From Ginglymostoma cirratum (taxonomy: Eukaryota): a stretch of DNA of 64,000 nt. The position numbers and the translations under genes are program-made. The stretch spans positions 12,964,570 through 13,028,569 of the forward strand of contig JAHRHZ010000070.1 of assembly GCA_024137785.1 (NCBI GenBank), read 5' to 3'. The notes beneath the pieces are model-generated. The model was not told the origin of the DNA, ran no database searches, and was given only the letters and a program-made list of their open reading frames with translations. Below, piece by piece: positions 11,600-59,412 of this stretch; position 1 is the stretch's first letter, and the number at the start of each line of letters is the position of its first letter.

Positions 11600-13900
11600 A
11601 AGTCTTCTTTTTCTGGCATCACACTGCAGTGACTTCACTATTGACCATTGCAATCATTGTCATCACTAATTATCTGATGAGAGTGAAAACTGCTTCTTGT
11701 TCTGTGCTCCATACCACTGAATATCCTTTGCAGCCAGCTTGCATAAAGATTTATATGCAGATAGCAAATTTATCAAGAATTTGGCCAAATAGTTCACAAG
11801 TCATCAATCCCCCTTCTCATTTATTGTTGCTGTATTTTTGCTCCAGACATGCCTTAGAAGGATCAGGATAAACCGCTGTTAGCCACAGTCATTGACCTAC
11901 GTATTTGACATCAATCGACTTCAGTTCCAGTTCTTTGTTGTTCTGCCTCAGCTCCATATGACAAGCTCTCTTTGGCAGTCTCATCAGATTCTGACCACGA
12001 TCTGTGATGGCTTCTCCCATTGTATTTCAATATCCATAGACCTGCAGTTTATCCCACACAGCTTCCAATCCTGGAAAATCATTGACTATCTCATGCTGTC
12101 TGCATTGATTTTCTTCTGGAGTGGCAGAAATGCCAAATGGCAGTTGTAACTACCAGTGTGTGCAAACCCTTATTCTGAGATTACGCTCTCTGGTCACAGC
12201 CTCTCTGACAAAGAGAGGCAACTTCCCAGCATTTACACTGTGAAGCCCCTTAAGAATCTTACATGTTTCATTAAGCTTTTTGCTCAATCTTCTGAAACCT
12301 GAGGAGTACGGGCCCAACCTACTGAACGTTTCCTCATAAGGAATATGTTACACTGTTGCTGAATCAGTCTGTTTTTTATGGTTACTCCCATATTTTCAAG
12401 ATTCTCCTTCTTATCTTTCAGGCTGGACTTGAGGGCAGCTGGAATTCTCCTTAGATGGTCCAGAGTTGCTTTCACACTTTCATTTACCTCAAGATGAAGC
12501 AGGTGGCACGGTGGCTCAATGGGTAGCACTGCTGACTCAAAGCACCAGGGACCTGGGTTCAATTCCACCCTCGGGCGACTGTCTGTGTGGAGTTTGCACA
12601 TTCTCCCCGCGTCTGTGCGGTTTTACTCCGGGTGCTCAGATTTCCTCCCATAGTCCAAAGATATGTAGGTTAGGTGGATTGGCCATGCTAAATTGTCCCA
12701 TAGTGTGCAGGCTAAGTGGGTAAGCCATGGGGAATGCAGGGTTACAGGGATGGGGTGGATCTAGGTGGGATGCCCTTCAGAGGGTTGGTGTGGACTCCAT
12801 GGGCCGAATGGCCTGCTTCTACACTTTAGGGTTTCTATGACGTTGACCTGGAAGACACTCAAGACCTGCGAGAACAAGTTTTTAATTTGTCAATACCTTG
12901 ACACCATGAAAAATACTGGAAATTTCCTTCCAATTATGTAGTGTTAGGAGTCCAAGCAGTTGACTTGTTTTATCTAGATGAGTGGATTTTGCTGAGGATC
13001 CATTATCTGGAAGTGCAGATCTTCTTTCTTCCAATTGCATTAGACTTTCAGCTCAGTTTGTCCTCTTGGGGTAAATATTGTTTCTTCGGATGGCCTCAAC
13101 TTTTACCTTCACAATTTCATTGTCTTGAGCAACTTTACATGCCCGTGAAATGCATGATATTTCATGTAACACTAATGTTTATCAGACATTTCACATTAAT
13201 TTGATATTTTCCTGCAGTCACAAACCATTTTTTTTAAACTTTGAGACTTGTTGGCACCTACGTGTTCTAGTGTGCAGAGTGATTTGTCAGAATCAACATC
13301 TGATGTCTCACCTGCAACTGTACTAATATGCTCCTCTTCTTTGTGGTGAAACACTTGTATGCAAAATGATTTCACTTCTTGCTGTTAGAAAACTGTTCTT
13401 TCTCATGCTGGACATATTTCCTTCTGTAATATTTATATCCACTACTCTGGCCTTGATCTTTCTGCTGGTCCTTTTGATAAATAGCTCTTCTTTTTCTCCA
13501 CTGTCTTGCACTTTGAAAGCCTGAACCGCCTCACAGCATAGTGCAAAGCTTTGTCAGTTCTCCCATCAGTGCTCTTCAGCTGATGATTAACCACTTAAGA
13601 GTTTCTGTACTTGCCAATAGTTTTCTTGATAGCAAGTTTATTTTCCCTCAGCAGTTGAGCAGACACACAGGAATTTCTTACTCTTAGGACAATGGATGAG
13701 ATTATCTCACTCAGCTTCAAAATCCAGTCACACACCTCACCATAGCTCCATACGGATCAATATTTTCTGGAGCTGAACATGACCTTTAATAAATAACATT
13801 AAGAGCGGGTTCAAAGGGGGTCTTCAAGGCCTCCAACATTTTACATGACTGGCTTTTCTGCAAATGAGCTCTAGGATGGCACTCCTTGCCCAGCACCAAG
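11600..13900 (-). mobile_element. Possible very old LTR-retrotransposon pol remnant (RT, RNase H, integrase order)
   Basis: Weak motif echoes on the minus strand: CEAVQAFK and IILHTSVS..GAY (like RNase H ILHTDAS..GAV), and EAITDRGQNL (like integrase SDxG). Many stops. Confidence 0.3.
12502..12840 (+). mobile_element. HE1-type V-SINE (tRNA-derived, elasmobranch)
   Basis: A/B boxes ggtggctcaatgg..gggttcaattcc; V domain tgtggagtttgcacattctccccg..ttggccatgctaaattg; CR1 tail gggccgaatggcctg. Confidence 0.92.
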
Positions 13901-15867: not shown

Positions 15868-16065
15868 AGAGGTAGTAGGAACTGCCGATGCTGGAGTCTG
15901 AGATAACAAGGTGTAAAGCTAGATGAACACAGCAGGCCAGGCAGCATCAGAGGAGCAGGAAAGCTGATGTTTCGGGTCCGGACCCTTGTGAAGAAACGTC
16001 AGCTTTTTTACTCCTCTGATGCTGCCTGGCCTGCTGTGTTCATCCAGCTCCACACCTTGTTACCT
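15868..16065. mobile_element. Fold-back Penelope terminal-repeat mini-insertion
   Basis: Two inverted arms meet at the hammerhead region. Imperfect 20-bp direct flanks ccagtgtgcctggttcactc / ctagtgtgtctagttcactc. Confidence 0.85.
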
Positions 16066-18346
16066 AGTGTGTCTAGTTCACTCTCTGTTAGCGACCAGAT
16101 TGTAAACAGCTTTAAAAAATATACATAACCATTTACTAGTTAGGTTGGTATAGTCTGTTCCTCGGTAAATAACAAAAAAGACTCTTACAAGATGCCTATC
16201 GCAGCCCCATGCCTAAGAAAAATTTAAACTTCAGAGCATGCTTGAGGCACTGCAGTTAGCGGAAATTCATCAGGGTCATTAACTCCAGGAATGGTTGGTT
16301 TGGTGGCAAATCAAACTCCTAGTTCACAAAAGCTGGCAGAAACCCAATTGGCACTGGACAAATTTGCTTTATGAATTTTTTTTATTCCTTGCACAAATTT
16401 TGGGAGAAATGCACTGGAAATACAAGTGCAAGCCAGCAGCAAACACCAGGTATTTATCATTAACAATTACCAATGTTGGTGAAGAGCAATCTTCTAAATT
16501 GGCTGTTTGCGGCCATTTGTGCTGAGCTGAAATCCAGGTGATTGCTTACTCACCACAGCGAGCGACTAAAGTAAAAATGACAATGCACTTTTGAGGTTTC
16601 ACTGTTCGAAGTAGGCACCAGATTCCAAGAACATGCATTCAACCTATTGAACCTCTCTAAAAGTATGAATAAACCTTCATCATATCTCATCTGCTGAAGC
16701 ATTTCAAGATATTTTCTGAGGTAATCCTCGCTGAAATACTCCCTTCAAGGTTTCTTATATATATTACACAAATCTATAGCTTGGAAGAAATCATTTCAGA
16801 GAATTAAAGAATGTGTTGCCATCTGAGTCTGTCAAGAGTAAACTAGAAAGAGCCAATCTTCTTTTTTCTTCTATTTATTCTACAAAATATTTTGGTTCTA
16901 GTACCAGCCATTGATGAACATCAGCAGCAAGCAACATGAGAAAAGGAGATACTACCCATGACACTGAAAGAGCTGAATTAACTCACAGTCAGAATGACAT
17001 GATTGCTAAAGTACTCTGGGTTAATAACTGTATATCCATTAATGTCAATTCAGAATGCTCCCTTGACTGAAACCTTTGTGATATTCTTTTTCTATGGGAT
17101 TGAATGATGATTTGATGGTGGTGAAATTAAAAACACTAATCTGCTGTGGATTGGCACTTAAAGGATCAATTCACAAAGAATATTTTAAAGCACATTTACA
17201 TTCTAATAGTCTTCTTTACAGACTAGAGAAAGTATCAAATAATTGGCACACTGAACCCCTGTATTTAGTAAATCATGTAAACTCCAAAATATTCATTTTT
17301 GTTCAAAATAGTCTTATTCTTAGTTCTTCCAGGTTCACCATTTTCACAGAAAGGACACAAGAAAATCAATATCTCATATCACTTTTGCACATTGTGACTT
17401 CGCATTTATGTTACATGTTTCACTCTCCAATCTGCTCTCATAATCCTGCCATAAGATTGAACAGTCTTATGAACTTTGCGTAAATGATTTATAAGTCATA
17501 GTCAATAGAAACATTACTTTTGTCTCCGTTCCATTCTTACTTCAGCTACTCCTCCTAGAAAGGGTGGACAGGTGCCATCTCTACTACTGGTCAAGGAAAG
17601 AACTTCTGTCCAAGACAAGACTGGTCCTTTCTTGACAACCCACACCTCTTCCTCTGGAACTGAATGATGTGTTCCATGTCACTGTTCCATTCAGATGCTT
17701 AACTACCGGGCTTCAAGCACAGGAACTGCATTTTGGGGAGTCAGATTCTCAACCACTTAACAATCCATGTATTGTCATACAGTTTGGCACTGCCACAGAT
17801 CTGAGTTGATCCAGTTTTAGCAAAGAGTATATGCGACACCTTCAGCCAAAACTACCACTCAAAAAGATCATGGATAATTTTCTACATTAAAACAATTTCC
17901 TAATCTATTCCATATCTTTTGATTGCCCAAATTTATATTGATCTCAATGAGCATCCAACACTCTGTGTTAAAGAATTCCAAAATTTCATAATGCTCAGTG
18001 AAGAAATTTCTTCTCATTCCAATCCCAAACGTTGATTTCTTAACCTTAAATTCTGAGTTCTGACGCTAGACATGCCAGCATCTACCCTGTCATGTGCACT
18101 AGGAATTTTATATATTTCAGGATATCTATTTCTCATTTTGCTCCTGCAAATTTTGACCAATCGACCATAAATCAATGTAGTGAATTTTTGTGCACCCTCT
18201 TTAAAGAATATCCTTCCTTGGATAGGGAAATCTAAATCGTACATAGTCCCCTAAAGGTCTGACCACACTGGAACTTCATATAGTGCTGTTTTAAGGAAAT
18301 TGTATTGAATTGAAAGACTATGAGATAGAAATGGTTTTGTATTTTA

Positions 18347-18696
18347 GTGACTGCATGGTGGCTAGCACTGCTGCCTCACAGTGCCAGGGACCGAGGTTCG
18401 ATTTCACCGTGGGCGACTGTCTGTGTGAAGTTTACATGTTCTCCCCGTGTCTATTTCCTCTGGTTTCCTCCTGGTGCTCCAGTTTCCTCCCGCAAACCAA
18501 AGATGTGCAGGTTAGGTGGATTGGCCATGCTAAATCGCCCATAGTGTTCAGGGATGTACAGGCTAGGTAGACTAGCCTTGGGAAATGCAGGGTTATGGGG
18601 ACGGAGTAGGTGGGTTGGTCTGCTCTTTGGAGGGTCAGTGTGTACTTGATGGGCCGAATGGACTGTTTCCACACTGTAGGGATTCTATGATTCTAA
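18347..18696 (+). mobile_element. HE1-type V-SINE
   Basis: Same head, V domain and tail as 12502-12840; ends gattctatgattcta. Confidence 0.92.
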
Positions 18697-19148
18697 TTGC
18701 CCCTGAGAAGTAGTGAGCCACCCTCTTGACCACTGCAGTTCATGTAGTGGAGATACTTCCATTGTGCTGGTAGGGATAGGATTCCAAGAATTTGGTTCCA
18801 GGAATCAGGTCTCGGTCCAGGTCCATTTTGCTGCTTTCGGACATGGGCTGATTCAGTATCTGAGGAATTGTGAATGGAGCTGAACATTGTTCAAGCGTCA
18901 GCTAGCATCCTCACGTCTGACCATATGATGGAGGGAAGGTGATTGATGAAGCACTTGAAGGTGATCAGGCTAAGGACACTTCCTTGAGGAACTCCTGCAG
19001 AGATACCATGGGGCTGAGATGACTGACCTTAAACAACCACAACCATTTTTGTTTGTGCTAGGTATGATTCCAACCTGTGGAGAGTTTGCCTCAAATTCCA
19101 TTGGCTCTAGATTTGCTAGGGTGCACTGTTGTTTTGATGCCACGCTTG
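18697..19148 (-). mobile_element. Rearranged fragments of the same CR1-group family
   Basis: Reverse-complement matches to the tail (ttgcccctgagaagtagtgagcca) and to the RT region (tcagtatctgaggaattgtgaatgg..tgatggagggaagg..actcctgcagagat). Confidence 0.75.
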
Positions 19149-19545
19149 ATCAAATATTACAATATTTAAAAGACATTTGAATAAATATATGAATAGTAAA
19201 GGTTTGCAGGGATATGGCAGATTGGACTACTTTAGTTTGGAATTACGTTCAGTGCGGACTGGTTGGACTGAAGGATCTGTTTCCGTGCTGTATAACTATG
19301 TTCTTGATGTCAAGAACAGTAACTTTCACCTCACCTCAATTTCAGCTTGTGGTGACATGGATTGTGTACTTCACCAGAAAAATTCTCTTAATTATTGAAC
19401 TATAAATGTTTGCTGTTGGGATATGAAGAAAATTCATCATTCAGAGGGCTATGTTCTTCAAGTGGGGTGCATTGCTAAATGATTTGATTCGTTGGTGTAG
19501 CTTCACTATTGTACTTAGTTTTGAAAATACAACATATCAGATACA

Positions 19546-19704
19546 AGATAACAAGCATGGGGCTGGATGAACACAGCAGGTCAAGCAGCATCATAGGAGC
19601 AGGAAAACTTGACGTTTCGGGCCTAAATCCTTCATCAGAAAATTCATCCAGCCCCATGCTTGTTATCTCGGATTCTCCAGCATCTGCAGTACCTTTTATC
19701 TCTG
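19546..19704. mobile_element. Inverted (two-orientation) Penelope terminal-repeat mini-insertion
   Basis: Minus-strand unit with hammerhead core (19608-19641) followed by a plus-strand 3' end. Flanks tatcagatacaa / tatcaaatacaa resemble a TSD. Same subfamily as the 54.5-kb element. Confidence 0.85.
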
Positions 19705-24716: not shown

Positions 24717-25077
24717 GGTGGCAATATGACAGAGTGGTTAGCACTGCTGCCTCACTGTGCCAGGGACACCCCAGGTTCGATTCTAGCCTTAGGTGACTGC
24801 CTGTGTGGAGTTTGCATGCTCTCCACATATCTGCTTGGGATTCCTCTAGGTTCTCTGGTTTCCTCCTACAGTGCAAAGATGTGCAGGTTAGGTGGACTGT
24901 CCATGCTAAATTGCCCGTACTGTCCAGGGACGTGCAGGCTAGGTGGGTTAGCCATGGTAAAAACACTATGATGTGGAGGTGCTGGGTTTGGGTGGGATGT
25001 TGTCCAGAGGGTTGGTGCAGACTCGATGGGCCGAATAGCCTCCTTCTGCACTGTGGGGATTCTGTGATTCTATGATT
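24717..25077 (+). mobile_element. HE1-type V-SINE
   Basis: Same structure; ends gattctgtgattctatgatt. Confidence 0.92.
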
Positions 25078-27140
25078 TGCAGGAAACCCCTCCAGTCAAA
25101 ACCTCCCTCCTGCTCACGCAGCTATGTAGATGGTCTGCCTTGTGTCATAGAGGACTCCACTCGACCTCTTTTAATGTCACTCAAGCATTACGTTCTGCAC
25201 AACACTACTGCTGACTTGGCTTTTTTCTATCGATTCATTGCCCTTTCCGTCTCCTCCCAGCCGCACAATATTGACTTCTTTGTATATATAACATTGCAAA
25301 GCTTCAGGGAATGAAATCTCCAAGAGCCAACAGTAAGGTGAGAAATAAATTGAACTTTTCACAGTCATCACTCCTAGTGAATCTTAAGAACCAAATCTTT
25401 GGGACAAGTGGGCTAATCTCAATAACCTGGCATTTAGTCTTCCTCAATGCACGAAACATTTATACCACAGGACTGTTTCACCAACAAGAGGAAGACAACT
25501 ACAGCTGTTGGCAGAGATGAAAGATGGCTGGCAACAGATGGTTGTATCTCTGTCACACTTGCCAGCTGTCCACAGAACGTCACCTTATATGAAGATAGTT
25601 GGCAACAAACATTAAAAAAAAACTGAAAAATGTAAAAAAGGAGAACATTTCTATGCTTCCTTCTGAATAGTGGGGAAGCCACAAACAATACAGATCCCAC
25701 GGAAAATATCGAATTGGTGATGACAGCCATCTTTAACAGCCCCTACCATAAGAGCCAGGAATCATGTGGAATGGCCTATAATCAATAGGAGCCCCCATAG
25801 TCAGAAATGTTGGAACAATTGAAACACAGCTGTATTTTCTACTATTAGAGGAGCAAAGAAAAAAAGAGCTGATTTTACTTTGGGAACACGCAGCAGGATA
25901 TTGAGTGCCCTCTGCTCAGCCAGTAAAAACAATGAGCAGCTCCAGGGATCATGTGATTGTAAGTGAATTACAGACCCACAGCTCTTAGTGAAGCAAGCTC
26001 AGCATTAACATGTGACAGCTATCTACGATTTGACAATGCTGTCAGCCGAGATGATAGATGAGAGTTGTCTGCTAATCATCAACACCTTTGTTCAATGTGA
26101 AATGTTGCTTGAATGATGTTTTGTTCTAACTGTTTTTCAAAACCAAGCAAGAGCCCAAATTGAGACATTAAATCAGCATAGTGTTTCAATGCCCAGAAAT
26201 ACCTCCTCGCTGCTGGCATTTTTTGGACCATGTCAGCCAACAAAATGTATATTACTCCAGTGTGGTAGCACGCTGGAGCCCACACAGCTTTCAAGGATCG
26301 TTACTTGGGTGGCTCAGTGCTGCAGTGACCTTGTTAAATCATCTAATGTGCACAGTACAGCTCTATTTGATGGCAGTATATGTGAAAAGTGTGTTGACAG
26401 AAACTTCACTTGGCTGATACTGCAGCAAGTCAGATTGTCTGATCAATCTGACAGACTCATTTATAAACTTTTGCCTATTAGTGCAACTTGGATTCAACTT
26501 AAATTTGCATCTGGTGCCAGCACTGGATTTATGGATTCTCTATTTTTGTTGTTGTTGTATGGTACATTACACCATATTTCTTTCAGAGGCAGACTCAATT
26601 GTTGTAGAAAACGCATCAGAAACAATGCAGCATTTTTTTCAAAGAAAACCAGTTCTTTAAAGCACAAAAAGCCAAGTTCAATATTTCATGCTCAAGTTCA
26701 CAAATTAACGATCGCTCTGCATTTTGCTTTAAAATTCACAGGAATTTGCAGTTCCTGTGCTCGTACACTGTATAAACTAGAGATTGCTCTAATGCCAGAA
26801 TAATGGGGCTATACTTCACAAATTGTCAGTTGCATTTACATCCATGTCAAATGGAAATGAAACCATGCCTGTTCTACTTAGTAGAAAGTTCCAAACATCC
26901 TTGATCTGAAGGTGCAGCAAATACTGAAGAGTGAAGGAAGATCCCATCCACTATAGCTAGTTTCTTACTGTTCATATACAGCTTTACAATCCCAACCATC
27001 TCCTTCTCTTGCCCGACTCAGGGTAGCTCATGGTTTCTCTCACTACACACTATCCCATCCTACTGCTAATTAAGCAACATTAACAGTTTGCAATTACATA
27101 GCACCTTTAACCTAAGGTTTAGGAAAGCAACCCTAGAACA

Positions 27141-27237
27141 TTTCTGAAGAAGGGTCCAGACGTGAAATGTCAGCTTTCCTGCTCCTCTGATGCTGCCTGG
27201 CCTGCTGTGTTCCTCCAGCTCCACACCTTGTTACCTC
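27141..27237 (+). mobile_element. 97-nt Penelope terminal-repeat unit with degenerate hammerhead
   Basis: tttctgaagaagggtccagacgtgaaatgtcagctttcctgctcctctgatgctgcc...ttgttacctc. Confidence 0.82.
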
Positions 27238-27649
27238 AAACTTACAGCCTTGGCCACCAACGATGCACTAATATTAATCAGAGATACTCGGGGCCAGAAT
27301 TAAAGGAACACAGGATGTGGGCAAGGAGGAGTTTACAGAGATAGGGAAAAGTGAAGTATTGGAGGGATCTGAAAACAGATATGAATACTTTAAAACGGAA
27401 ACATTTGTAATCAGGAGTTAATGTAGAGGGAGCACAAGAACAATGGGTTAACAGGGCTCTGATTAAGAAGAAATGTTTTAGATGATATGGATGTGCTGTT
27501 GGGCTATAGTGACTTGAAACAGATTCTGGACTGTTAATTAAATGAAACTTGCATCTCCTTTCTAACAGAGTTTTCCACACCTGGCTTCTGCAATTTCTAG
27601 AATGCAGGAATGTATGAATGATTAAAGATTCAACAGGAGACAGTCAGCC

Positions 27650-33534: not shown

Positions 33535-34345
33535 TATATTCATTCAGGAGGTGTGGATTTCATTGCCTGGACCAACGTTTATAGCCCAACTCTACGAGAA
33601 AGTGGTGGTGAGCTGCCTTCTTGAACCATTGAAGTCCATTTGGTGTGTATGTAGCTACAATGTTGGTATGGAGAGAATTCCAGGGTTTTGACCCAGTGAA
33701 ACTGAAGGAGCAGCAATACACTTCCAAGTGAGAAAAGTGAGTGGCTTGGAGAGGAACTTGTAGATAGTCTTCCCATGCATCTGTAGTCCCTGTCCTAAAT
33801 GATAGTAGTCGTGGGTTTGGAAGTTGGTGTCTAAGAAGCCTTGGTGAATTTCAGCAGTGCATCTTATAGATGGTCCATACTGCTACGACTGAATGTTGGT
33901 GATCGAGAGTGTGGATATTTTTGGATGTGGTGCTAATCAGGTGGGTTGTTTTGTCTTAGATGGTGTCAAATGTCATGAATGCTGTTGAAGCTGCACTCAC
34001 CCATGCAGGTGAAGAGTATTCCAACACATTCTTGACTTTTGCCTTGTAGACAGTGAACAAGCTTTGGCAAATCAGGAGGTGAGTTATTTACTGCAGGATT
34101 CCTTTGACCTGCTGTTGTAGCCATAGTATTTATATGGCTAGTCCAGTTCAGTTTTTGATCAATGGTAACCCCAAGGGGGTCAATAATGGGGGATTCAGAA
34201 ATGGTAATGCCATTGAATGTCAAAGGGTAGTGGTTAGATTCTCTCTTATTGGACATGGTCATTGCCAGGCACTTGCATAGCATGACTGTTACTTGCCGTT
34301 TGTCAGCCCAAACCTGGATATTATCCAGGTCTTGCTGCATGTGTT
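33535..34345 (-). mobile_element. 3' fragment of the same CR1-group family as 51056-54253
   Basis: ORF 33966-34379 (MQQDLDNIQVWADK..ITISESPIIDPLGVTIDQKLNWTSHI) is homologous to 53440-53650; shares the 3' tail. Confidence 0.9.
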
Positions 34346-39289: not shown

Positions 39290-40985
39290 CATTCGAGTCT
39301 GCTCCACCACTCGATGAGATCATAGCTGATCTGATAATCCTCAATTCCACTTTTCTGCCTTTTCCTCTTGATTCTCTTGATCCCCTGACTGATTAAAACC
39401 TGTCCATATTGGCCTTGAATATACTTAATGATTCAGCCTTGAAAGCCATAAGACTTAGGAGCAGAATTAGACCATTCAACCCACTGAGTTTGCTCTGCCG
39501 TTCAATCATGGCTGATATGCTTCTCAACCTCATTCTCCTGACTTCTTCCAGAACCCTTGATCCCTTTGACTAATTAAGCCTATTTATCAGTGTCTTAAAT
39601 ATACTCAATGACATGGCCTGTACAGCCTTCTGAGGCAATGAGTTCCACAGATTAACCACCTTCTGGCTGAAAAATTTCTCCTCATCTCAGTTCTAAAGAG
39701 TCATCCCTTCACTGTGGCTATACTTTTGGGTCCTAGTCCCTCTTACTACTGGAAACATCTTCTGCACATCCATTTTCTCCAGGCCTCTCAGCATTCTGCC
39801 AGTTTCAATGAAAGCCACACTCCCTACCGCCTCATCCTTCCAAACTCCATTGAATACAGACCCAGAGTTCTCAGTCATTGCTTATTTGACAAGCCCTTCA
39901 TCCCCGGGATCATTCTTGCCAACCTCCTCTGGACCCCTCCAATGTCAGCACATTCTTCCTTAGATGCAGGGCCCAAAACTGCTCACAACATTCCAAATGC
40001 AGTCTGACAACAGCCTTATACAGCCTCAGTGCTACATCATTGCTCTTGTATTCTGACCTTCTTGAAGTGAATACTAACATTGCATTTGCCTTCCTAACTG
40101 CCAAAAGAACCTACATGTTAATCTTAAGAGAACTAGGAGTCCCAAGGTTTCTGAAACCTTTCCCTGTTTAGAAAATAGTCTCCACTTCTATTTTTCCTAC
40201 GAAAGTGCATAACTTCACACTTTCCCACATTGTATTCCATCAGCCATTTCTTTGCCCACTCTCCTAGCCTGTCCATGTCCTTTTGCAGCCTTCCCACTTC
40301 CTCAGGACTACTTGTCCCTCCAACTATTTTTGTTTCATCTGCAAACTCTGCAAATATTCCCTCAGTTCCTTTGATTGTTATTTATAACACGTGGTTCTAA
40401 CACTGAACCCTGCGGAACTCCGCTAGGCACCAGCTGCCACCTGAAAAAGACCCCTTTATCCCAACTCTCTGTCTTCTGCCAGTCAGCCAATCCTCTATCC
40501 ATGCCAGTACACTGCTCCTAACACCATGGGCTCTTACCTTATTTAGCATCTCTTGTGTGGCACTGATCTTCTGGCACACCACTAGTTACAAGTTGACAGC
40601 CTGAAAATTTCCAACTCTTTACCGTCTATTAGTTAGCCAATCCTCTATCCATGCTAATATATTACCTCCAATACCAAGGGCTCTTATCTTATTAATTTGC
40701 CAAATGCGTGATACCTTATAAACAGGTTCTGAAAATCCAAATATATAACATCCAATGCTTCAGCTATCTTCCTAGTTACCTCCTCAAAAGATTCTAATAA
40801 ATTTCTCAGGCATGATTTCCCCTTTATGAATCCACACTGACTTGGCTTGATCATAATATACATTTCTAAAATAGACTCTAACATCTTCCCATCAACAGAC
40901 ATTAAGCTAACTAGCCTATAGCTCCTCGTTTTAGTCTCCTTCTCTTTTTATACAAAGGTATTACATTGGCAGTTTACAATCCTGT
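39290..40985 (-). mobile_element. CR1 (HER1-like) LINE remnants: RT region and nested 3' ends
   Basis: Translations SQCGFIKGKSCLRNLLESFEEVT..DVIYLDFQ, AHGVRSSVLAWIEDWLTGRRQRVGIKGSFS and RLYKAVVRLHLECCEQFW. Confidence 0.9.
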
Positions 40986-42269: not shown

Positions 42270-42760
42270 TACAATAAGGCCGGAACTTATTGCCCATTCC
42301 TAAATTCTGATGAAGGGTCTAGGCCCGAAACGTCAAGCTTTCCTGCTCCTATGATGCTGCTTGGCCTGCTGTGTTCATCCAGCTCCACACTTTGTTATCT
42401 CAGCCCTTAAGAAGCTGTTGGTTAACCGTACTGTAAATCTGCGGCAGTTCATGGAGAGAAAGTACATTCACATGTAATGTAAGGAGCTCCAGAATATCGA
42501 CCGAGCATTGATAAAGGAATGGCAATATATTCCCAAGTCAAAAGATGCGCGACTTGGAGACAAGGCAGTTGTTATTATATTCCCATGGGCCTGGTTGTCC
42601 CTATCCTAGGTGGCAAAAGTAACAGATTTGGAAATTGCTGTCAAAGGAACCTTAGTGAATTGTTGCAATGTATCTGGAAAATAGTATGCCCCGTCGCCAG
42701 ATTGTACTACTGGTGGAAGGAGTGAAATGTTTAAGATAGTGGATGTAGCACCAATTATCT
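42270..42760 (-). mobile_element. Degenerate 3' end of the same CR1-group family, interrupted by the 97-nt hammerhead unit
   Basis: ttattgcccattcctaa, cccttaagaagctgttggt and cttggagacaag match the reverse complement of 53870-54240. Confidence 0.65.
42305..42401 (+). mobile_element. 97-nt Penelope terminal-repeat unit with intact hammerhead core (42307-42334)
   Basis: ttCTGATGAagggtctaggcccGAAACGTCaag...ttgttatctc; closely matches the terminus of the 54.5-kb element. Confidence 0.88.
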
Positions 42761-48291: not shown

Positions 48292-48472
48292 CATGAGATA
48301 GTAGGAACTGCCGATGCTGGAGTCAAAGATAACAAGGTGTGGAGCCGGATGAACACAGCAGACCAGGCAGCATCAGAGGAGCAGGAAAGCTGACATTCTG
48401 AAACGTCAGCTTTCCTGCTCCTCTGATGCTGCCTGGCCTGCTGCATTCGTCCAGTTCCACACCTTGTTATCT
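48292..48472. mobile_element. Fold-back Penelope terminal-repeat mini-insertion
   Basis: Inverted arms of about 70 nt. Direct repeat ATCTTAGCATGGCAA at 48277-48291 and 48469-48483. Confidence 0.87.
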
Positions 48473-49479
48473 TAGCATGGCAAGAAGACTTGAATAAGGA
48501 GTAGTACGGAAGCAAAGCGCTGCCAGTTTCATCCCTTGTTTACTTACAAATCCATTGCACTTTACATTCAGGGGAATTACTATTCTGATTGTGCACTGTC
48601 TACTACAAAGTGACAATAAAATTTGGTGATGCAACATAATCAGTATCTTCTATAGCTCAACAGAGCAGACAAAGCCAAGTTTCAATGGTTTGTCTGAAAG
48701 ACAGTACTCTGATAATGCAGCACTGTCACTGCAGTGCTGCACTGGTACCTCCACCCAGACTGTGTGTGCCAACCTTTGCAAAGGAATTTTAACCTCGGCC
48801 TAGCAAACTAAGTGTTAAAGCAGCTTCCACTGAGTCAAGGCAAGATTGACTGGCCAGCTTTAATTTTCATTGAAATTAGTGGAAATTAAAATCAGACAGC
48901 TTCTATAATGGATGCTGATCCACAAAACCAAATTGATGCATTGATAGAAGATAGAATATCTAAACCCAAGAGTCCATCACGACGTGCGATTTATGAGTTA
49001 TAAAGCAGCCAGAACGGTGACAGGTTTCATCCTTGAAGTACATCGCCGAGCCAATTCAATCAGGTGGCCTTCATTGTCTGATGCAAACCCACAATTTAAT
49101 GAATTTGCTTTCCAAGTTGACATGCTGAGATTTTCACTCACACCCTCTGGGATGCTGGTTGAATATCACCGCTACTAAGTTACTGTACCCTTATGCTCAT
49201 TTGAAATATTTTGCACATTCTGATATAATAAAACAGAAAATAGATGATAAAATCAGCATAAAAATAAATTGTTAATCTACACAGAATTAGTGCCTTTTGA
49301 CATGAAATGGAGAAATGGGAATAGTTTGGATAGTCTTGGCAATGTGACTGTAGACATTTGAACCAAAATCTTACAGAAAACCCTCCTGATGGATCAATGC
49401 GAAACATGTTGAAAATATCCAGGAAGACAAAAATAACCTTTTCCAACAAATGCACAACAGATGCCATATCAACTCTAAA

Positions 49480-49998: not shown

Positions 49999-50069
49999 CT
50001 GACAAGTAGTAAAATAGTGGGAAGTGCAGACGAGTCAACTAGCAGAAAAACAGGTTCAGGAAGAAAGTA

Positions 50070-50166
50070 GAGATAACAAGCATGGGGCTGGATGAACACA
50101 GCAGGTCAAGCAGCATCATAGGAGCAGGAAAACTCGACGTTTCGGGCCTAAACCCTTCATCAGAAA
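50070..50166 (-). mobile_element. 97-nt Penelope terminal-repeat unit with hammerhead core
   Basis: Nearly identical to 54566-54662; flanked by the direct repeat AGAAAGTA (50062-50069 and 50162-50169, partly overlapping the element end). Confidence 0.88.
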
Positions 50167-51055
50167 GTATTTTGCATGGGAGACCAACAAGCTATATCCT
50201 GAGCATGGCCAAATTCCAACAAAGTAAAACAGATGCAGTATGCGAAGACATTCCCACGTATAAACATGGCAAGTTTTGAAGTAAGTATTATGAATGTATT
50301 ATTTGAATAACATATGCAGAAATATATACAAATTGCTGTTTCCATTAAAATTTGGATTTTCAGTTTGAGACTCATTGCATTAAATTAAAAGAAGAAAAAA
50401 ATGGAATATCCTAAAAAAACAGAAATAATAAAATAGCTGAAGAATCAGTTGCTACAATGAATCCAGGAATGTGAATAGAGGTACTAAATATACTGTCAGT
50501 TCAGATGCTTCAATCACCATTGATGCAAAGTGAGGCATTAGCAGTTCTAACACAGTATGAAGAGAATATTGATCGGCTTCTAAGTGTAGCTGAGGAGAAA
50601 TTATTTAACTCCTTCCCTTACATGCGGATTAAAATTATATTTATATATTATTTACTGCAGTTCTTCCTCAACGATATGACAGAGGTATCAATAGCGTAAT
50701 TATGTAGGCACATGTTAGGTTAATAATGTGATCAGATAACAATCAAAATGAGCTTTCAGTGTTGACGAATGTATTTATTTGGTAATTTCTATATGTTGGA
50801 AATAAATAAAACATTTATTCACATAGCTTATTTCGTACAGAAACTGGACGGATGAGAAAAGCCCTCAAAGTCCTCCAGTGATGGGTGTTGACAGCTTAGG
50901 TTATGGAGATCATTTGAAAAGTAATCAAAATGTCATGAGATGAAAGTATATTGAGACTGGCTAAAGTCAACCACTCTTCCAACATTGATTTTATTTTAAA
51001 TGGTTCTGTGTTTTAAAAAAAAAAATTTTCGTGATAATAACGACAATACCACTAG

Positions 51056-54000
51056 GCGATGGCCTAGTAATGTTATCACTAGACTATCAATCCAGAAACT
51101 CAGCTAATGTTCTGGGGACCCAGGTTCAAATCCCGCCATGGCAGATGGTGGAACTTGAATTCAAAAAACAAAACTCTGGAATTAAGAATCTACTGATCAC
51201 AATGAGGTCATCATCGATTGTCAGAAAAACCCATCTGCTTCATTAATGCCCTTCAGGGAAGGAAATCTGCCATCCTCACCTGGTCTGGCCTACATGTGAC
51301 TCCAGACCCACAGCAATGTGGTTGACTCTCAATTGCCCTCTGAAATGGCCGAGCAAGCCACTCAGTTGTACCAATTGCTACAAAACCTCAAAGAAATGAA
51401 ACCGGATGGATTACCTGGCGTTGACATAGGCACTGAGAAAGACAATGGCAGAAACAGCCCTGTCGACCCTGCAAAGTCCTCCTCACTAACAACTGGAGGT
51501 TAGTGCCAAAATTGGGAGAGCTGTCTCACACACTAGTTAAGCAACAGCCTGACATAGTCATACTCACCGAATCATACCTTACAGACAATGTCCCAGACAC
51601 CACCATCACAGTCCCTGGATACGTCCTGTCCCACCGGCAGGACAGACCCAGCAGAGGGGGCTGCACAGTGGTATACAGTCAGGAGGGTGTTGCTCTAGGA
51701 GTCCTCAAAATTGACTCCGCACCCCATGAAGTCTCAAGGCTTCAGGTTAAACATGGGCAAGGAAACGTCCTGCTGATTACCACACACTGTCCTCCCTCAG
51801 CTGATGAATCAGTACTCCTCCATGTTAAACAACACTTGGAGGAAGTACTGCGGATGGAAAGGGCACAAAATGTACACTGGGTGGGGGATTTCAATGTCCA
51901 CCACCAAGAGTTGCTCGGCAGCAGTACTACTGGGTCTGCAGCAGGTCATGAGGGAACCAAGAGGGAAAAACATACTTGACCTCATCCTTAGCAATCTGCC
52001 AGCTGCAGATGCATCTGTCTATGACAGTATCGGGAAGAGTGACCACCGCATAGTCCTTATGGAGACGTAGACCGCCTTCACATTGAGAACAACCTCCATC
52101 ATGTTTTGCGGCTTTATCACTGTGCTAAATGAGACAGATTTGGAACAGATCCAGCAACTCAAGACTGGGCATCCATGAGGTGCTGTGGGCCATCAACGGC
52201 AGCAGAAGTGTACTCCAGCACAATCTGTTACCTCATGGCCCAGCATATCCCCCACTCAACCATTACCATCAAGCCAAGGGATCAACCCTGGTTCAATGGG
52301 GACTTCAGGAGAGCATGCCAGGAGCAGCACCAGTCATACCTGAAGATGAGGTGTCAACCCGATGAAGTCACCAAACAGGACTACTTGCGTGGCAAACAGC
52401 GAAATGTTAGATAGAGCTAAGCGATCCCACAACCAAAAAGATCGGATCTAATCTCTGCAGTACCGCCACATCCAGTCGTGAATGGTGGTGGATGATTGAA
52501 CAACTCACTGGAGGACGAGGTTCTGCAGATATCCCCATCCTTAATGATGGAAGAGCCCAGCACATCAGTGCAAAAGATAAGGCTGAAGCTTTCACAGCAA
52601 TCTTCAGCCAGAAGTGCTGAGAGCATGATCCATCTCGGCCTCCTCCAGTGGACCCCAGCATCCCCAGTCTTCAACCAATTCAATTCACTTCACGTGATAT
52701 CAAGAAACAGTTGGAGACACTGGATACCGCAAAGGCTACAGGCCCTGACAACATTCTGGAAATAGTACCGAAGACTTGTGCTCCAGAACCTGCCACTCCC
52801 CGAGCTAAGCTGTCTCAGTACAACATTGGCATCTACCCGACAATGTGGAAAATTGCCCAAGTATGTCCTGTACATAAAAAGCAAGACAAATCCAGCCCAG
52901 CCAAATACCACCCCATCAGTCTACTCTCGATCATTAGTAAAGTGATGGAAGGTGTCATCAACACTGCTATCGAGAAGCACATGCTCAGAAATAACCTGCT
53001 CAGTGACGCCCAGTTTGGGTTCCACCAGGGCCACTCCGCTCCTGATCTCATTACAGCCTTGGTTCAAACATGGACAAAAGAGCTGAATTCCAGAGGTGAG
53101 GCTAGAGTGACAGCCCTTGACATCAACGTTGCATTTGACCAGATGTGGCAACAAGGAGCCCTAGCAAAATTGGTATCAATGGGTATCGGGGGCAAACTCT
53201 CTAGTGATTGGACTCATACCTGACACATAGGAAGATGGCTGGTTGTTGGATGTCAATCATCTCAGTTCCAGGGCATCTCGCAAGAGTTCCTCAGGGTAGT
53301 GTCCTCAGCCCAACCATCTTCAGCTGCTTCATCAAGGGCCTTCCCTCCATCATAAGGTCAGAAGTGGGGATGTTCATCAATGATTACACAAGGTTCAGCA
53401 CCATTTGCGATTCCTCAGATACTGAAGCAGTCCACGTTCAAATGCAACAATATCCAGGCTTGGCTGAAAAGTGGCAAATAACATTCATGCCACACAAATG
53501 CCTGGTTATGACTATCACCAATAAGAGACAATTTAACCACCGCTCCTTGGCATTCAGTGGTGTTATCATCACTGAATCCCCCACTATCAACGTCCTGGGG
53601 GTTATCATTGACCAGGAACTCAGCTAGACTCACCACATAAACACAGGGGCTACAAGAGCTGGTCACAGAGGCTTATAATACGATGGTGCGTAACTCACCT
53701 CCTGACTCCTCAAAGCCTGTACATCATCTATTAAGCACAAGTCAGGAGTGTGAAGGAATACTCCCCACTTGCCTGGATGAGTGCAGCTGCAAAAACACTC
53801 AAGAAGCTTGACACCATCCAGGACAAAACAACCCACTTGATTGGCACCACATCCACAAGCATTCATTCCCTCCACCACCGAAGCTCAGTAGCAGTAGTGT
53901 GTAGTATATACAAGATGCACTGTAGAAATTCACCAAAGATCCTCAGACAGCACCTTCCAAACCCACAAACGCTTCCATCGAGAAGGACAAGGGCAGCAGA

Positions 54001-54253
54001 TATATAGGAACACCACCACCTTCAAGTTCCCCTGTGAGCCACTCACCATCCTGACTTGGAAATATATCATTGTTGCTTCAGTGTCGCTGGGTCAAAATCC
54101 TGGAATTCCCTCCCTAATGGCATCGTGGGCCAACCCACAGCAGGTGGACTGTAGCAGTTCAAGAAGGCAGCTCACCACCACCTTCTTGAGGGCAACTAGG
54201 GATGGGCAATAAATGCTGGCCAGCCAGCAACGCCCACATCCCACAACTGAATA
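51056..54253 (+). mobile_element. Near full-length CR1/L2-group non-LTR retrotransposon (AP endonuclease + RT, disrupted) with a tRNA-like 5' head and no ORF1
   Basis: EN motifs PDIVILTESYL, GYVLSHRQDR..RGG, GDFNVHH, LDL, SDHRIV. RT motifs KATGPDNI, WKIAQVCPVHKK, YHPISLLS, QFGF, VPQGSVLSP, FINDY. B-box GGTTCAAATCC at 51123-51133. Several frameshifts and stops. Confidence 0.92.
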
Positions 54254-54627
54254 GGGATCAAAAGCGAACATTTGTTACTCATCCTTACTGTCTTTGAGTG
54301 ACTTGTTAGGCCATTTCAGAAAGGATTTCAGAGTCAACCAGATTGCTTTGAGTCTGTAGTCACACGTAAGACAGATTTCCTTCTCGAAAAGGCATCAGTG
54401 ATTTTTAAGACAACCATGGAAAACTTTACATTCGTCATTATTCGGACTAGCTTTCAATTCTAAATAGAGCTTATTAATTAGAGTTTCATCAGCTGCCATG
54501 GTGGAATTTAGAGATATGTTTGCAAAGCATTAGAGATAAAAGGTACTGCAGATGCTGGAGAATCCGAGATGACAAGCATGGGGCTGGATGAACACAGCAG
54601 GTCAAGCAGCATCATAGGAGCAGGAAA

Positions 54628-54663
54628 ACTTGACGTTTCGGGCCTAGACCCTTCATCAGAAAT
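54628..54663 (-). ncRNA. Minimal type I hammerhead ribozyme motif in the Penelope terminal repeat
   Basis: uuuCUGAUGAa-GGGUcuagGCCC-GAAAC-GUC-aag: catalytic core, stem II and palindromic ACGU stem III, as known for PLE hammerheads. Confidence 0.8.
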
Positions 54664-54931
54664 GGGGGAGGGGAAGAGGGTTCTGAAATAAATAGGGAGA
54701 GAGGGGGAGGCGGATAGAGGATGGATAGAGGAGAGGATAGGTGGAGAGGAGGCAGACAAGTCGAAGAGGCGGGGATGGAGCCAGTAAAGGTGAGTGTCGG
54801 TAGGGAGGTAGGGAGGAGATAGGTCAGTCCAGGGAGGACGGACAGGTCAAGGGGGCGGGATGATGTTAGTAGGTAGGAGATGGGGGTGGGGCTTGAGGTG
54901 GGAGGAGGGGATAGGTGAGAGGAAAAACAGG

Positions 54932-56635
54932 TTAGGGAGGTGGAGATGAGCTGGGCTGGTTTTGGGATGCGGTTGGGGGAGGGGAGATTTTGAAGCTTGT
55001 GAAATCCACATTGATACCATTGGGCTGCAGGGTTCCCAGGCTGAATATGATTTGCTGTTCCTGCAGCCTTCGGGTGGCATCACTGTGGCATTGCAGGAGG
55101 CCCAGGATGGACATGTCGTCTGAGGAATGGGAGGGGGAGTTGAAATGGTTCGTGACTGGGAGGTGCAGTTGTTTGTTGCGAACTGAGCGCAGGTGTTCTG
55201 CAAAGCGGTCCCCAGGCCTCCGCTTGGTTTCCCCGATGTAGAGGAGGCCACAACGGGTACAGCGGATGCGGTATACCACATTGGCAGATGTGCAGGTGAA
55301 CATCTGCCTGATGTGGAAAGTCTTCTTGGGGCCTGGGATTGGGGTGAGGGAGGAGGTGTGGGGGCAGGTGTAGCACTTCCTGCGGTTGCAGGGAAAAGTG
55401 CCGGGTGTGGTGGGGCTGGAGGGGAGTGTGGAGCGGACAAGGGAGTCGCAGAGGGAGTGGTCCCTCCGGAAGGCAGATAAGGGTGGGGAGGGAAAAATGT
55501 CTTTGGTGGTGGGGTCTGTTGGCAGATGGCGGAAGTGTCGGAGGATGATGCCTTGGATCCGGAGGTTGGTGGGGTGGTACGTGAGGACGAGGGAGATTCT
55601 TTTTTGGTTGTCATTGCGGGGACGGGGCGTGAGGGATGTGTTACGGGAAATGCGGGAGACACGGTCGAGGGCGTTCTCGACCACTGTCGGGGGGAAGTTG
55701 CGGTCCTTGAAGAATGAGGACATTTGAGATGTACGGGAGTGGAATGTCTCATCCTGGGAGCAGATGCGGCGGAGGCTAAGGAATTGGGAATAGGGGATGG
55801 CATTTTTGCAGGAAGGTGGGTGGGAGGAGGTGTATTCCAGGTAGCTGTGGGAGTCAGTGAGCTTGAAATGGACATCGGTTTCTTGGTGGTTACCCAAGAT
55901 GGAGACAGAGAGTTCCAGGAAGGAGAGAGAAGTGTTGGAGATGGTCCAGGTGAACTTCAGGTTGGGGTGGAAGGTGTTGGTGAAGTGGATGAACTGTTCG
56001 AGCTCCTCGTGGGAGCACGAGGCAGCGCCGATGCAGTCATCAATGTAACGGAGGAAGAGGTGGGGTTTAGGGCCAGTGTAGGTACGGAAGAGGGATTGTT
56101 CCACGTAACCTACAAAGAGGCAGGCATAGCTTGGGCCAATGCGGGTACCCATGGCCACCCCCTTTGTCTGTCGGAAGTGGGAGGAATTGAAAGAGAAGTT
56201 GTTGAGTGTGAGGGCTAGTTCGGCTAAACGGATGAGGGTGCCAGTGGATGGGGACTGGTCAGGCCTCTGGGACAGGAAGAAACGGAGGGCCTTTAGGCCA
56301 TCTGCTTGGGGAATGCAGGTGTATAGGGACTGGACGTCCATAGTAAAAATGAGGTGTTGGGGACAGGGGAATTGGAAGTTCTGGAGGAGGTGGAGGGCGT
56401 GGGTGGTGTCACGGACGTAGGTAGGGAGTTCCTGGACCAAGGGGGTGAAAATGGAGTCTAGGTAGGTGGAGATGAGTTCGGTGGGGCAGGAGCAGGCGGA
56501 GACAATGGGTCGACCAGGGCATTCAGGTTTGTGGATTTTGGGAAGGAGATAGACGCGGGCGGTGTGGGGTCGGGGAACGATGAGGTTGGAGGCGGTGGGT
56601 GGGAGGTCACCTGAGGTGATGAGTTTGTGGATGGT
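54932..56635 (-). CDS. Penelope-type reverse transcriptase + GIY-YIG endonuclease (N-terminally truncated, 568 codons including stop)
   Basis: Motifs LPKIHK..GRPIVS, TMDVQSLYT, QTKGVAMGT, FLRYIDD, and NVVYRIRC..CGLLYIGETKR..RFAEH. The frame stays open for 65 codons upstream of the called TTG start at 56440. Confidence 0.95.
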   Translation of the reverse strand, partial: TIHKLITSGDLPPTASNLIVPRPHTARVYLLPKIHKPECPGRPIVSACSCPTELISTYLDSIFTPLVQELPTYVRDTTHALHLLQNFQFPCPQHLIFTMDVQSLYTCIPQADGLKALRFFLSQRPDQSPSTGTLIRLAELALTLNNFSFNSSHFRQTKGVAMGTRIGPSYACLFVGYVEQSLFRTYTGPKPHLFLRYIDDCIGAASCSHEELEQFIHFTNTFHPNLKFTWTISNTSLSFLELSVSILGNHQETDVHFKLTDSHSYLEYTSSHPPSCKNAIPYSQFLSLRRICSQDETFHSRTSQMSSFFKDRNFPPTVVENALDRVSRISRNTSLTPRPRNDNQKRISLVLTYHPTNLRIQGIILRHFRHLPTDPTTKDIFPSPPLSAFRRDHSLCDSLVRSTLPSSPTTPGTFPCNRRKCYTCPHTSSLTPIPGPKKTFHIRQMFTCTSANVVYRIRCTRCGLLYIGETKRRPGDRFAEHLRSVRNKQLHLPVTNHFNSPSHSSDDMSILGLLQCHSDATRRLQEQQIIFSLGTLQPNGINVDFTSFKISPPPTASQNQPSSSPPP

Positions 56636-57248
56636 AGCATTAGCCTGAATCTCTGGATTACTAGTTCAGCAACATTATCACAACACCAGTGTCTTGCACC
56701 GAAAATTCAGAAAAGCATCTTTAGGATGGAGGCTTTGACATGCACGTTAAGTACTTGGCCATTTTCTAATCACCGCAGGACAAATGAGAATGAATTCAAA
56801 TCGGAATTCAAGAAAAACTTCTTGACTTGAAATGTAGGAACTCACTACTACTAACAGTGGTTGAGATAAGAGCAGAGTTTTACTTAAGGGGAATCCAGAT
56901 AAACATGAGGGATAAAAGGATGGAAGGATATGTTGACAGGATGAGATGAAGAGGGATGAAAGGAGGCTCCTTTAGAGCACAAACAATGATCGGTACGATA
57001 GAGTGGAGAAAGGTTGATGCATTAAATGAAATTAAGAAATTTCTTTTTTTGGAAGGGGAGGCCCAGTTAGAGTGATTTTCATCTTAACACCTGAAACCAA
57101 AAGAATATGCTTGGTGTATGGAAATTAATTCTGCCAATGACCGCTGGTTTGAAACTCTGTTATACAATTTGATCAAGCCTGTGGTGGGCTCCGAAAGCTG
57201 AAGTTTCCGTAGTGTAAGGGAAAGGGACAGCCACGGTCCATTTTATAA

Positions 57249-58132
57249 TCCTGATGTGGAGGTGCTGGTGTTGGACTGGGGTCAGAAATCACATAACACC
57301 ATTGTTGAGGATGTACTAAACAAACCTTAGATGCTGTTAATTCTTTAATCAGTTAGAAGGTTTTAATTGATTAATGTATATATGTAAATCCCTGAATTCC
57401 TTTCAAGTTACGGTCCTGAGAGAACTGAAGGCTTTATCAGTGTAAAGAAGAGGTGACATTTTAGGTCAGACAATGCATGTTGGATGTGAGATCTTGTTCA
57501 GAATCTGCCTGTGTCTTAGTTTGGAGTCAGTCCGGCTTTATCTCCAAAGCAGGAATTTATAAAATACCATGTTGACTGCCTGTCTATAAATTGTGTGCTT
57601 TTTGAACAAAATGAAATGTATCTGCAAATATAAATTTACCCCATAGACTGACTCAGACACACTCGCTCTAATCCTCCTCACACACACATACACGTGAATC
57701 TATGGGGTGAATTTAAAATTGCAGATACATTTTATTTTGTTCAAAAAGCACACAATTAATAGACAGTCAGTCATGGAGATAAAGCCGGTCTGACTCCAAA
57801 GTAAGACACAGGCAGATTCTAAACAAGGTCTCATACCAAACATGCATTTCTGGCTTAAAATGTCACCTCTTCTTTATACCGATAAAACCTTTCGCTCTCT
57901 CAGGACCGTGACTTGAAAGGAATTCAGAGACTTACATATATTTATTAATCAATTAAAACCTTCCAACTGATTAAACAGCATCTTGGGTTTGTTTAGTACA
58001 TCCTCATCAATGGTAGAACCTTTGATCTTTTACTTATAAATTCTGTGTCTGATACTACCTCTCTCACTAACACCTGAAGGAGGACCGAGGCTCCGAAAGC
58101 TTGTGTTTTCAAATAAATCTGCTCGACTATAG
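57249..58132. mobile_element. Second-family Penelope-type 3' region inserted as a long inverted duplication
   Basis: Arms 57299-57647 and 57699-58013 are reverse complements. Terminus cacctgaaggaggaccgaggctccgaaagcttgtg..aaataaa..gactata matches 27745-27830. Flanks ccattttataa / ccattttacaa. Confidence 0.8.
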
Positions 58133-59236: not shown

Positions 59237-59412
59237 CATAGATAGCAAGAATTGCAGATGCTGGAGTCAGAGGCAACACAGTGTGGAGTTGGAGGAACAC
59301 AGCAGGCCAGGCAGCATCAGAGGAGCAGGAAAATTCTAAAGAAGAGTCCCGACCCAAAACATCAACTTCCCTGCTCCTTTGATACTGCCTGGCCTGCTGT
59401 GTTCCTCCAGCT
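59237..59412. mobile_element. Fold-back Penelope terminal-repeat mini-insertion
   Basis: Inverted arms ggaggaacacagcaggccaggcagcatcagaggagcagg / cctgctcctttgatactgcctggcctgctgtgttcctcc. Direct repeat CAGCTAATGA at 59227-59236 and 59408-59417. Confidence 0.85.

Follow-up and report, generated by a model that had tools for sequence, protein, structure and literature searches.

Non-LTR retrotransposons, or LINEs, are described as products of RNA polymerase (Pol) II, and Pol III as an enzyme that limits the length of what it transcribes (PMC10886601; PMC5786205). The closest described system to the element treated here is the Zenon LINE of elasmobranchs, which has no ORF1, ends in a poly-A tail and was grouped with crustacean elements (PMC13343379). 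In the same account ORF1 is missing from all Zenon elements, and its absence at the present locus is therefore not surprising (PMC13343379). The copy at 51053-54254 of the window, i.e., the whole 64-kb stretch of Ginglymostoma cirratum DNA that was analyzed, is a dead copy of this abundant elasmobranch Zenon LINE, full-length but decayed, lying on the plus strand and 91% identical to the family majority sequence. The first-pass annotation had allowed that the family might already be catalogued, and indeed it is, as published elasmobranch Zenon (PMC13343379). As far as the literature was searched, the family is known but its tRNA-derived head and its purge of T-runs are undescribed. Judging from sequence, we put the chance that the full 3.3-kb Zenon message is made by Pol III at roughly 70%.

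All parts of the window copy are on the plus strand. The element had been placed at 51056-54253; the location is right, but the true start is 51053, the family beginning about four G residues earlier, at the G run before TAGGC where the family homology begins. The copy opens with a tRNA-Ser-derived head (51053-51144), delimited by alignment to the tRNA-Ser(GCT) of the genome, in which box scoring gives an A box at 51060-51070 and a B box at 51123-51133. The B box GGTTCAAATCC had been correctly located at 51123. The A-box-like TGGCCTAGTAA is likewise at the position given, 51060, but it is decayed in the window copy, the intact form of the family majority being TGGCCTAGTGG. A conserved 5′ UTR domain (51145-51370) follows, and then an ATG-initiated upstream ORF of 35 codons (51396-51503), which overlaps the main frame in another frame. 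The family majority has one stop-free endonuclease-reverse transcriptase (EN-RT) frame of 977 codons, spanning 51344-54197, and its first in-frame ATG is codon 171. An APE endonuclease region (51473-52100, weak PF03372 match) and a reverse transcriptase region (52621-53624, PF00078 over the cut-off in two pieces) are both broken in the window copy, whose alignment to the majority contains 13 indels, 10 of them frameshifting; the majority itself carries the endonuclease motifs N-G, TE, GDFN, and SDH. The KVLL endonuclease frame does begin at 51473, about 100 nt past 51370, as had been noticed, and the remark that no room is left for ORF1 is correct as to ORF1, although the 35-codon upstream ORF is present. 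The 3′ tail (54190-54254), a 53-nt UTR plus the end of the ORF, is common to a related SINE. The family terminus is AATGAAT followed by an A-rich tail, which is short in most Zenon copies and eroded in this one. As the eye had found, 51053-54254 contains a single sense T4 run, at 52104-52107, a private mutation absent from the family majority, and A runs are common (18 A4+ vs. 10 C4+ and 8 G4+); the T4+ runs in three flanking stretches of 3.2 kb number 15, 20, and 24. Elsewhere in the window, the minus strand holds older Zenon fragments, as well as a piece of the related SINE, at 33596-34343, 18825-19154, 42488-42686, and 54295-54375.

The simplest alternative to a composite family, a SINE and a truncated LINE brought together by chance at this one locus, is refuted. 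A search of the same genome with 51050-51650 returned 12,252 first-look candidates, and the head and the endonuclease start were both spanned in 40/40 scored loci, the window copy included; the same junction recurs in the published consensuses, so that the junction is family-wide, as the first-pass annotation supposed. After exclusion of 16 copies with insertions or truncations, 23 nearly complete uninterrupted copies plus the window copy were aligned, yielding a majority sequence of 3281 nt to which the copies are 91-95% identical; the ATG of the upstream ORF is retained in 22 of the 24. Of 34 copies selected by their body rather than their head, 13 have their 5′ start at base 1-7 and 19 have lost their 5′ part at scattered points; the head is split by a nested insertion in the other 2, and no alternative common upstream sequence was found among them. 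Nor was a longer, ORF1-bearing form found among the genomic copies searched, as the first reading of the element implied. Exact target-site duplications of at least 7 nt were absent from 25 complete copies, and folding of the family 5′ UTR was unremarkable (z −0.4 to 1.1). A search of the same genome for diverged sister subfamilies returned only the same Zenon family, and hence provided no independent in-genome replicate. Two Zenon copies on separate contigs (L144:3636-4289 and L147:4252-4496) carry a Penelope-related insertion after head base 70 with duplication of bases 56-70; the shared site may reflect target preference or duplication.

Among 27 distinct tRNAs of the same genome, tRNA-Ser(GCT) gave the best alignment to the head, with a score of 70 vs. 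a shuffled maximum of 39 ± 3.7. Box scores in the majority are 9.9 (A) and 17.3 (B), as against tRNA medians of 9.0 and 16.8, and the pair of boxes reaches 27.3 vs. a shuffled maximum of 11.1. Default ARAGORN and Rfam made no tRNA call on the head; a hit under relaxed ARAGORN was discounted because, among 59 unrelated loci, even stricter relaxed parameters returned 22 hits. The head is of tRNA-Ser origin; it retains the promoter boxes but has lost the cloverleaf. Such a head could in principle be a processing signal, at whose tRNA-like fold RNase P would release the element from Pol II read-through RNA of the host. That the 5′ end is sharp and coincides with the tRNA's first base would suit this explanation, as would the 5′ self-cleaving ribozymes described in R2, RTE, Ingi, and other elements (PMC5786205). 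However, the head neither folds nor scores as a tRNA, and processing would leave the purge of T-runs over 3 kb unaccounted for, which makes this explanation quite improbable.

This purge is found in the coding strand, where T-rich words are depleted beyond codon-preserving expectation, and on that strand only. The family majority contains 2 TTT runs vs. 48, 47, and 40 runs of A, C, and G, respectively, and no T4. Base composition or codon taste might be thought sufficient to explain this, the head being then a passenger from one old template switch between SINE and LINE. The sense strand is T-poor (20%), and the T4 count, the measure to which the annotation had attached its argument, matches chance by itself (0 vs. 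1.6 expected in codon-preserving shuffles, P = 0.17). Yet with protein and codon usage fixed by synonymous permutation, the frame has 2 TTT vs. 11.5 expected and no window with four T in five vs. 9.6 expected, and 0/3000 shuffles were as low in these two measures. The deficit persists under dinucleotide shuffling, is confined to T and to one strand (A, C, and G runs in the frame match expectation), and does not appear in controls with the same T content. For the CR1 and Penelope majorities of this genome, with 20-22% T, the T-run counts are 26 vs. 25.0 expected and 14 vs. 14.9, respectively, so that the contrast with other shark repeats suggested at first pass is borne out; explanation by composition is accordingly very improbable. 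The CR1 control family was taken from a canonical CR1 reverse transcriptase fragment at 40166-40693 (minus strand) of the window. The two remaining TTT belong to conserved motifs, GDFN and QFGF, and Phe is encoded by 16 TTC and 1 TTT.

Windows with four T in five include the weak terminators T3VT, TVT3, and T2VT2, at which human Pol III was found to stop (PMC3141230). The 3281-nt majority is free of T4 and of every weak class tested in that source, whereas its opposite strand has 12-16 of each four-T class; taken one by one, none of the single terminator classes is significant (P 0.05-0.8). Outgroups came from 80 LINE loci on metagenome contigs, 59 of which were kept after removal of 21 with N or a frame shorter than 400 aa. 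No frame among the 59 lacks four-in-five windows, and only one, the short L243, lacks T4. The lowest TTT ratio among them is about 0.74-0.75 vs. 0.17 for the family, and the nearest relative, L220, has 67 TTT vs. 64.6 expected. One T-rich outgroup, L251, matches the family in z-score (−3.7 vs. −3.4), though at a ratio of 0.75. Most outgroups are T-richer than the family, with T at or below 23% in only 3/59. The 840-nt majority of older Zenon tails had too little power for the T-run test.

T-runs reappear in genomic copies as fast as expected under neutrality (9.2 vs. 9.7 in simulation), and C>T changes at run-creating sites show no cold spot (median 0.037 vs. 0.043), from which it follows that the purge acted on the masters. 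Shared C>T variants are weakly avoided at run-creating sites (0/105 vs. 24/748, P = 0.04), and shared variants from any base to T make T-runs in 3/34 cases, near the 11.8% opportunity. One shared variant, present in half of the copies, creates TTGTT, a class almost inactive as a Pol III terminator (PMC3141230).

The family could still be a normal Zenon transcribed by Pol II, with the tRNA head as a captured relic or a part of the Pol II promoter and with U-runs avoided on account of premature polyadenylation, splicing, decay, or export. LINE transcription is generally ascribed to Pol II (PMC10886601; PMC5786205), capping would solve the problem of translation, and the Phe content of the family, the lowest of 72 at 1.8%, is partly clade background, the neighboring clade having 2.0-3.8%. 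Against this, the Pol II-type controls of the same genome and the 59 outgroup frames tolerate T-runs, the boxes keep tRNA-level scores though the cloverleaf is lost, and the starts of the copies cluster at head base 1, so that transcription by Pol II appears unlikely. The retained internal promoter and the removal of terminators, strong and weak, from one strand only are two independent marks that point to Pol III, and from the tRNA-Ser-derived head with its A and B boxes together with the T-run purge, the full message is likely to be a Pol III product. The need to translate an uncapped RNA without an in-frame ATG counts against Pol III.

If Pol III is the enzyme, the internal A and B boxes would be bound by TFIIIC, and Pol III would initiate at the first G, read through 3.3 kb because no internal terminator is present, and halt at the first T-run beyond the 3′ end. 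A terminator arising inside a master would truncate its RNA and leave that master without offspring. The uncapped RNA might perhaps be translated in a cap-free manner, from a non-AUG start or via the overlapping upstream ORF, for which the conserved 5′ UTR domain is a conceivable helper. LINE protein binds the 3′ tail of its RNA, and insertion proceeds by target-primed reverse transcription; the Zenon protein would also mobilize the related SINE. It is reasonably probable on the same evidence that sharks and rays harbor a once highly successful autonomous retrotransposon of this kind, with a 3.3-kb coding RNA made by Pol III, cap-free translation, codons rewritten against weak terminators, and a SINE arising by internal deletion.

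The terminator itself is supplied by the flank in many SINEs. No fixed terminator was found at the Zenon 3′ end in 88 copies, T4 occurring near the end in 10/88 and further out in 11/88. An arrangement of AATAAA plus terminator, as in T+ SINEs, was rejected, AATAAA being present in 18/88 tails and accompanied by T4 in only 2. About 1 in 9 copies ends in AATGAAT, a T-run, and an A-run (e.g., L017, L047, L093, L140, L146, L202, and L213). Such ends might resemble Pol III RNA that was terminated and then adenylated; in a crude count they are not enriched relative to T4 in the flank.

In the related SINE, ~355 nt long, Zenon bases 1-293 are joined to the last ~62 nt, and by eye its alignment to bases 1-293 of the LINE is about 90% alike. 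A second join near base 317 was also seen, and a SINE fragment lies beside the window copy (54295-54375). Either the SINE head was captured by the LINE or the SINE was deleted from the LINE; the relation may run in either direction. The first reading had seen a SINE-type central domain at about 51225-51370. The domain exists and is conserved, being common, as 51145-51370, to the related SINE and seven published elasmobranch Zenon consensuses, but no match to a named SINE domain was found. A Deu domain was considered and rejected, as two core motifs of EbuSINE2 had no match in the 64-kb window and 329 loci, and short motifs of the body were absent from two SINE supplements. Since the body lacks the Deu core motif of EbuSINE2, identity with SacSINE1/DeuSINE is not supported. 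A second tRNA-headed SINE family, which we take to resemble HE1/V-SINE, occurs in the window at 12502-12845, 18341-18695, and 24717-25072.

Other repeats in the window include a young element at 54850-56665 (minus strand) with a 577-aa open frame and copies 95-96% identical, which is presumably Penelope-like, judging from its RT/GIY-YIG-like motifs. The terminal repeat of this element is scattered over the window (15869-16065, 19541-19703, 27135-27242, 42293-42403, 48295-48475, 50066-50166, 54532-54673, and 59239-59412), and its hairpins give sub-threshold Rfam miRNA hits. At 57344-57975 there is a long nested inverted repeat with arms about 90% complementary across ~280 nt.

Transcription of Zenon by Pol III, if true, would break the textbook division between coding LINEs made by Pol II and non-coding SINEs made by Pol III, and would mean that a 930-residue enzyme can be encoded in a 3-kb message produced by vertebrate Pol III. 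It would also turn the translation of uncapped Pol III RNA, and the origin of SINE bodies directly from a LINE 5′ UTR, into testable questions. The purge of TTT and four-in-five T windows offers a simple sequence screen of repeat libraries for further cases.

The family has the traits of Zenon in the CR1 group, namely an APE endonuclease and a reverse transcriptase in one frame, no ORF1, and a poly-A-type tail. A reverse transcriptase tree built without a named Zenon reference places it outside canonical CR1 and beside crab proteins with support of 0.62, a weak grouping that agrees with the placement reported for Zenon (PMC13343379); the closest non-elasmobranch proteins are about 42% identical. 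By eye, the first 400 letters of RhiTyp_Zenon-1 are near letter-for-letter those of the family majority; the two are 3293 and 3281 nt long, and both lack ORF1 and have an A-rich tail (PMC13343379). The tRNA head opens 7/7 published shark and ray Zenon consensuses, again by eye in the first 400 letters, but is absent from the first 400 letters of Zenon from hagfish (two rows) and coelacanth (one row; PMC13343379). The main text of that paper contains neither “tRNA” nor “polymerase III,” and the head, the T-run purge, the upstream ORF, and the SINE partner are undescribed there (PMC13343379). The literature search gave no description of a Pol III-made LINE or of the Zenon tRNA head.

Several other elements share single properties with this family. 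RTE-1_DAn and related elements are autonomous LINEs said to hold tRNA-like sequence, but belong to another clade and host, and the part of the source that treats them makes no claim of Pol III transcription (PMC5786205). Lepidopteran Zenon gave rise to a short two-ended deletion derivative, Persaeus, which differs in having, as described, neither tRNA homology nor a Pol III promoter (PMC6740152). The TRIMp3 elements Cassandra, Helenus, and Ajax are alike in being non-SINE retroelements with Pol III promoters from small RNA genes, yet they are non-autonomous, LTR-type, non-coding, and at most about 1.3 kb long (PMC10886601). tRNA-derived SINEs (SINE2) come nearest in layout, with a tRNA head containing A and B boxes, a conserved body, and a LINE-type tail as in Zenon, but they are short and non-coding, whereas Zenon is nine times longer (3.28 kb) and encodes EN-RT.
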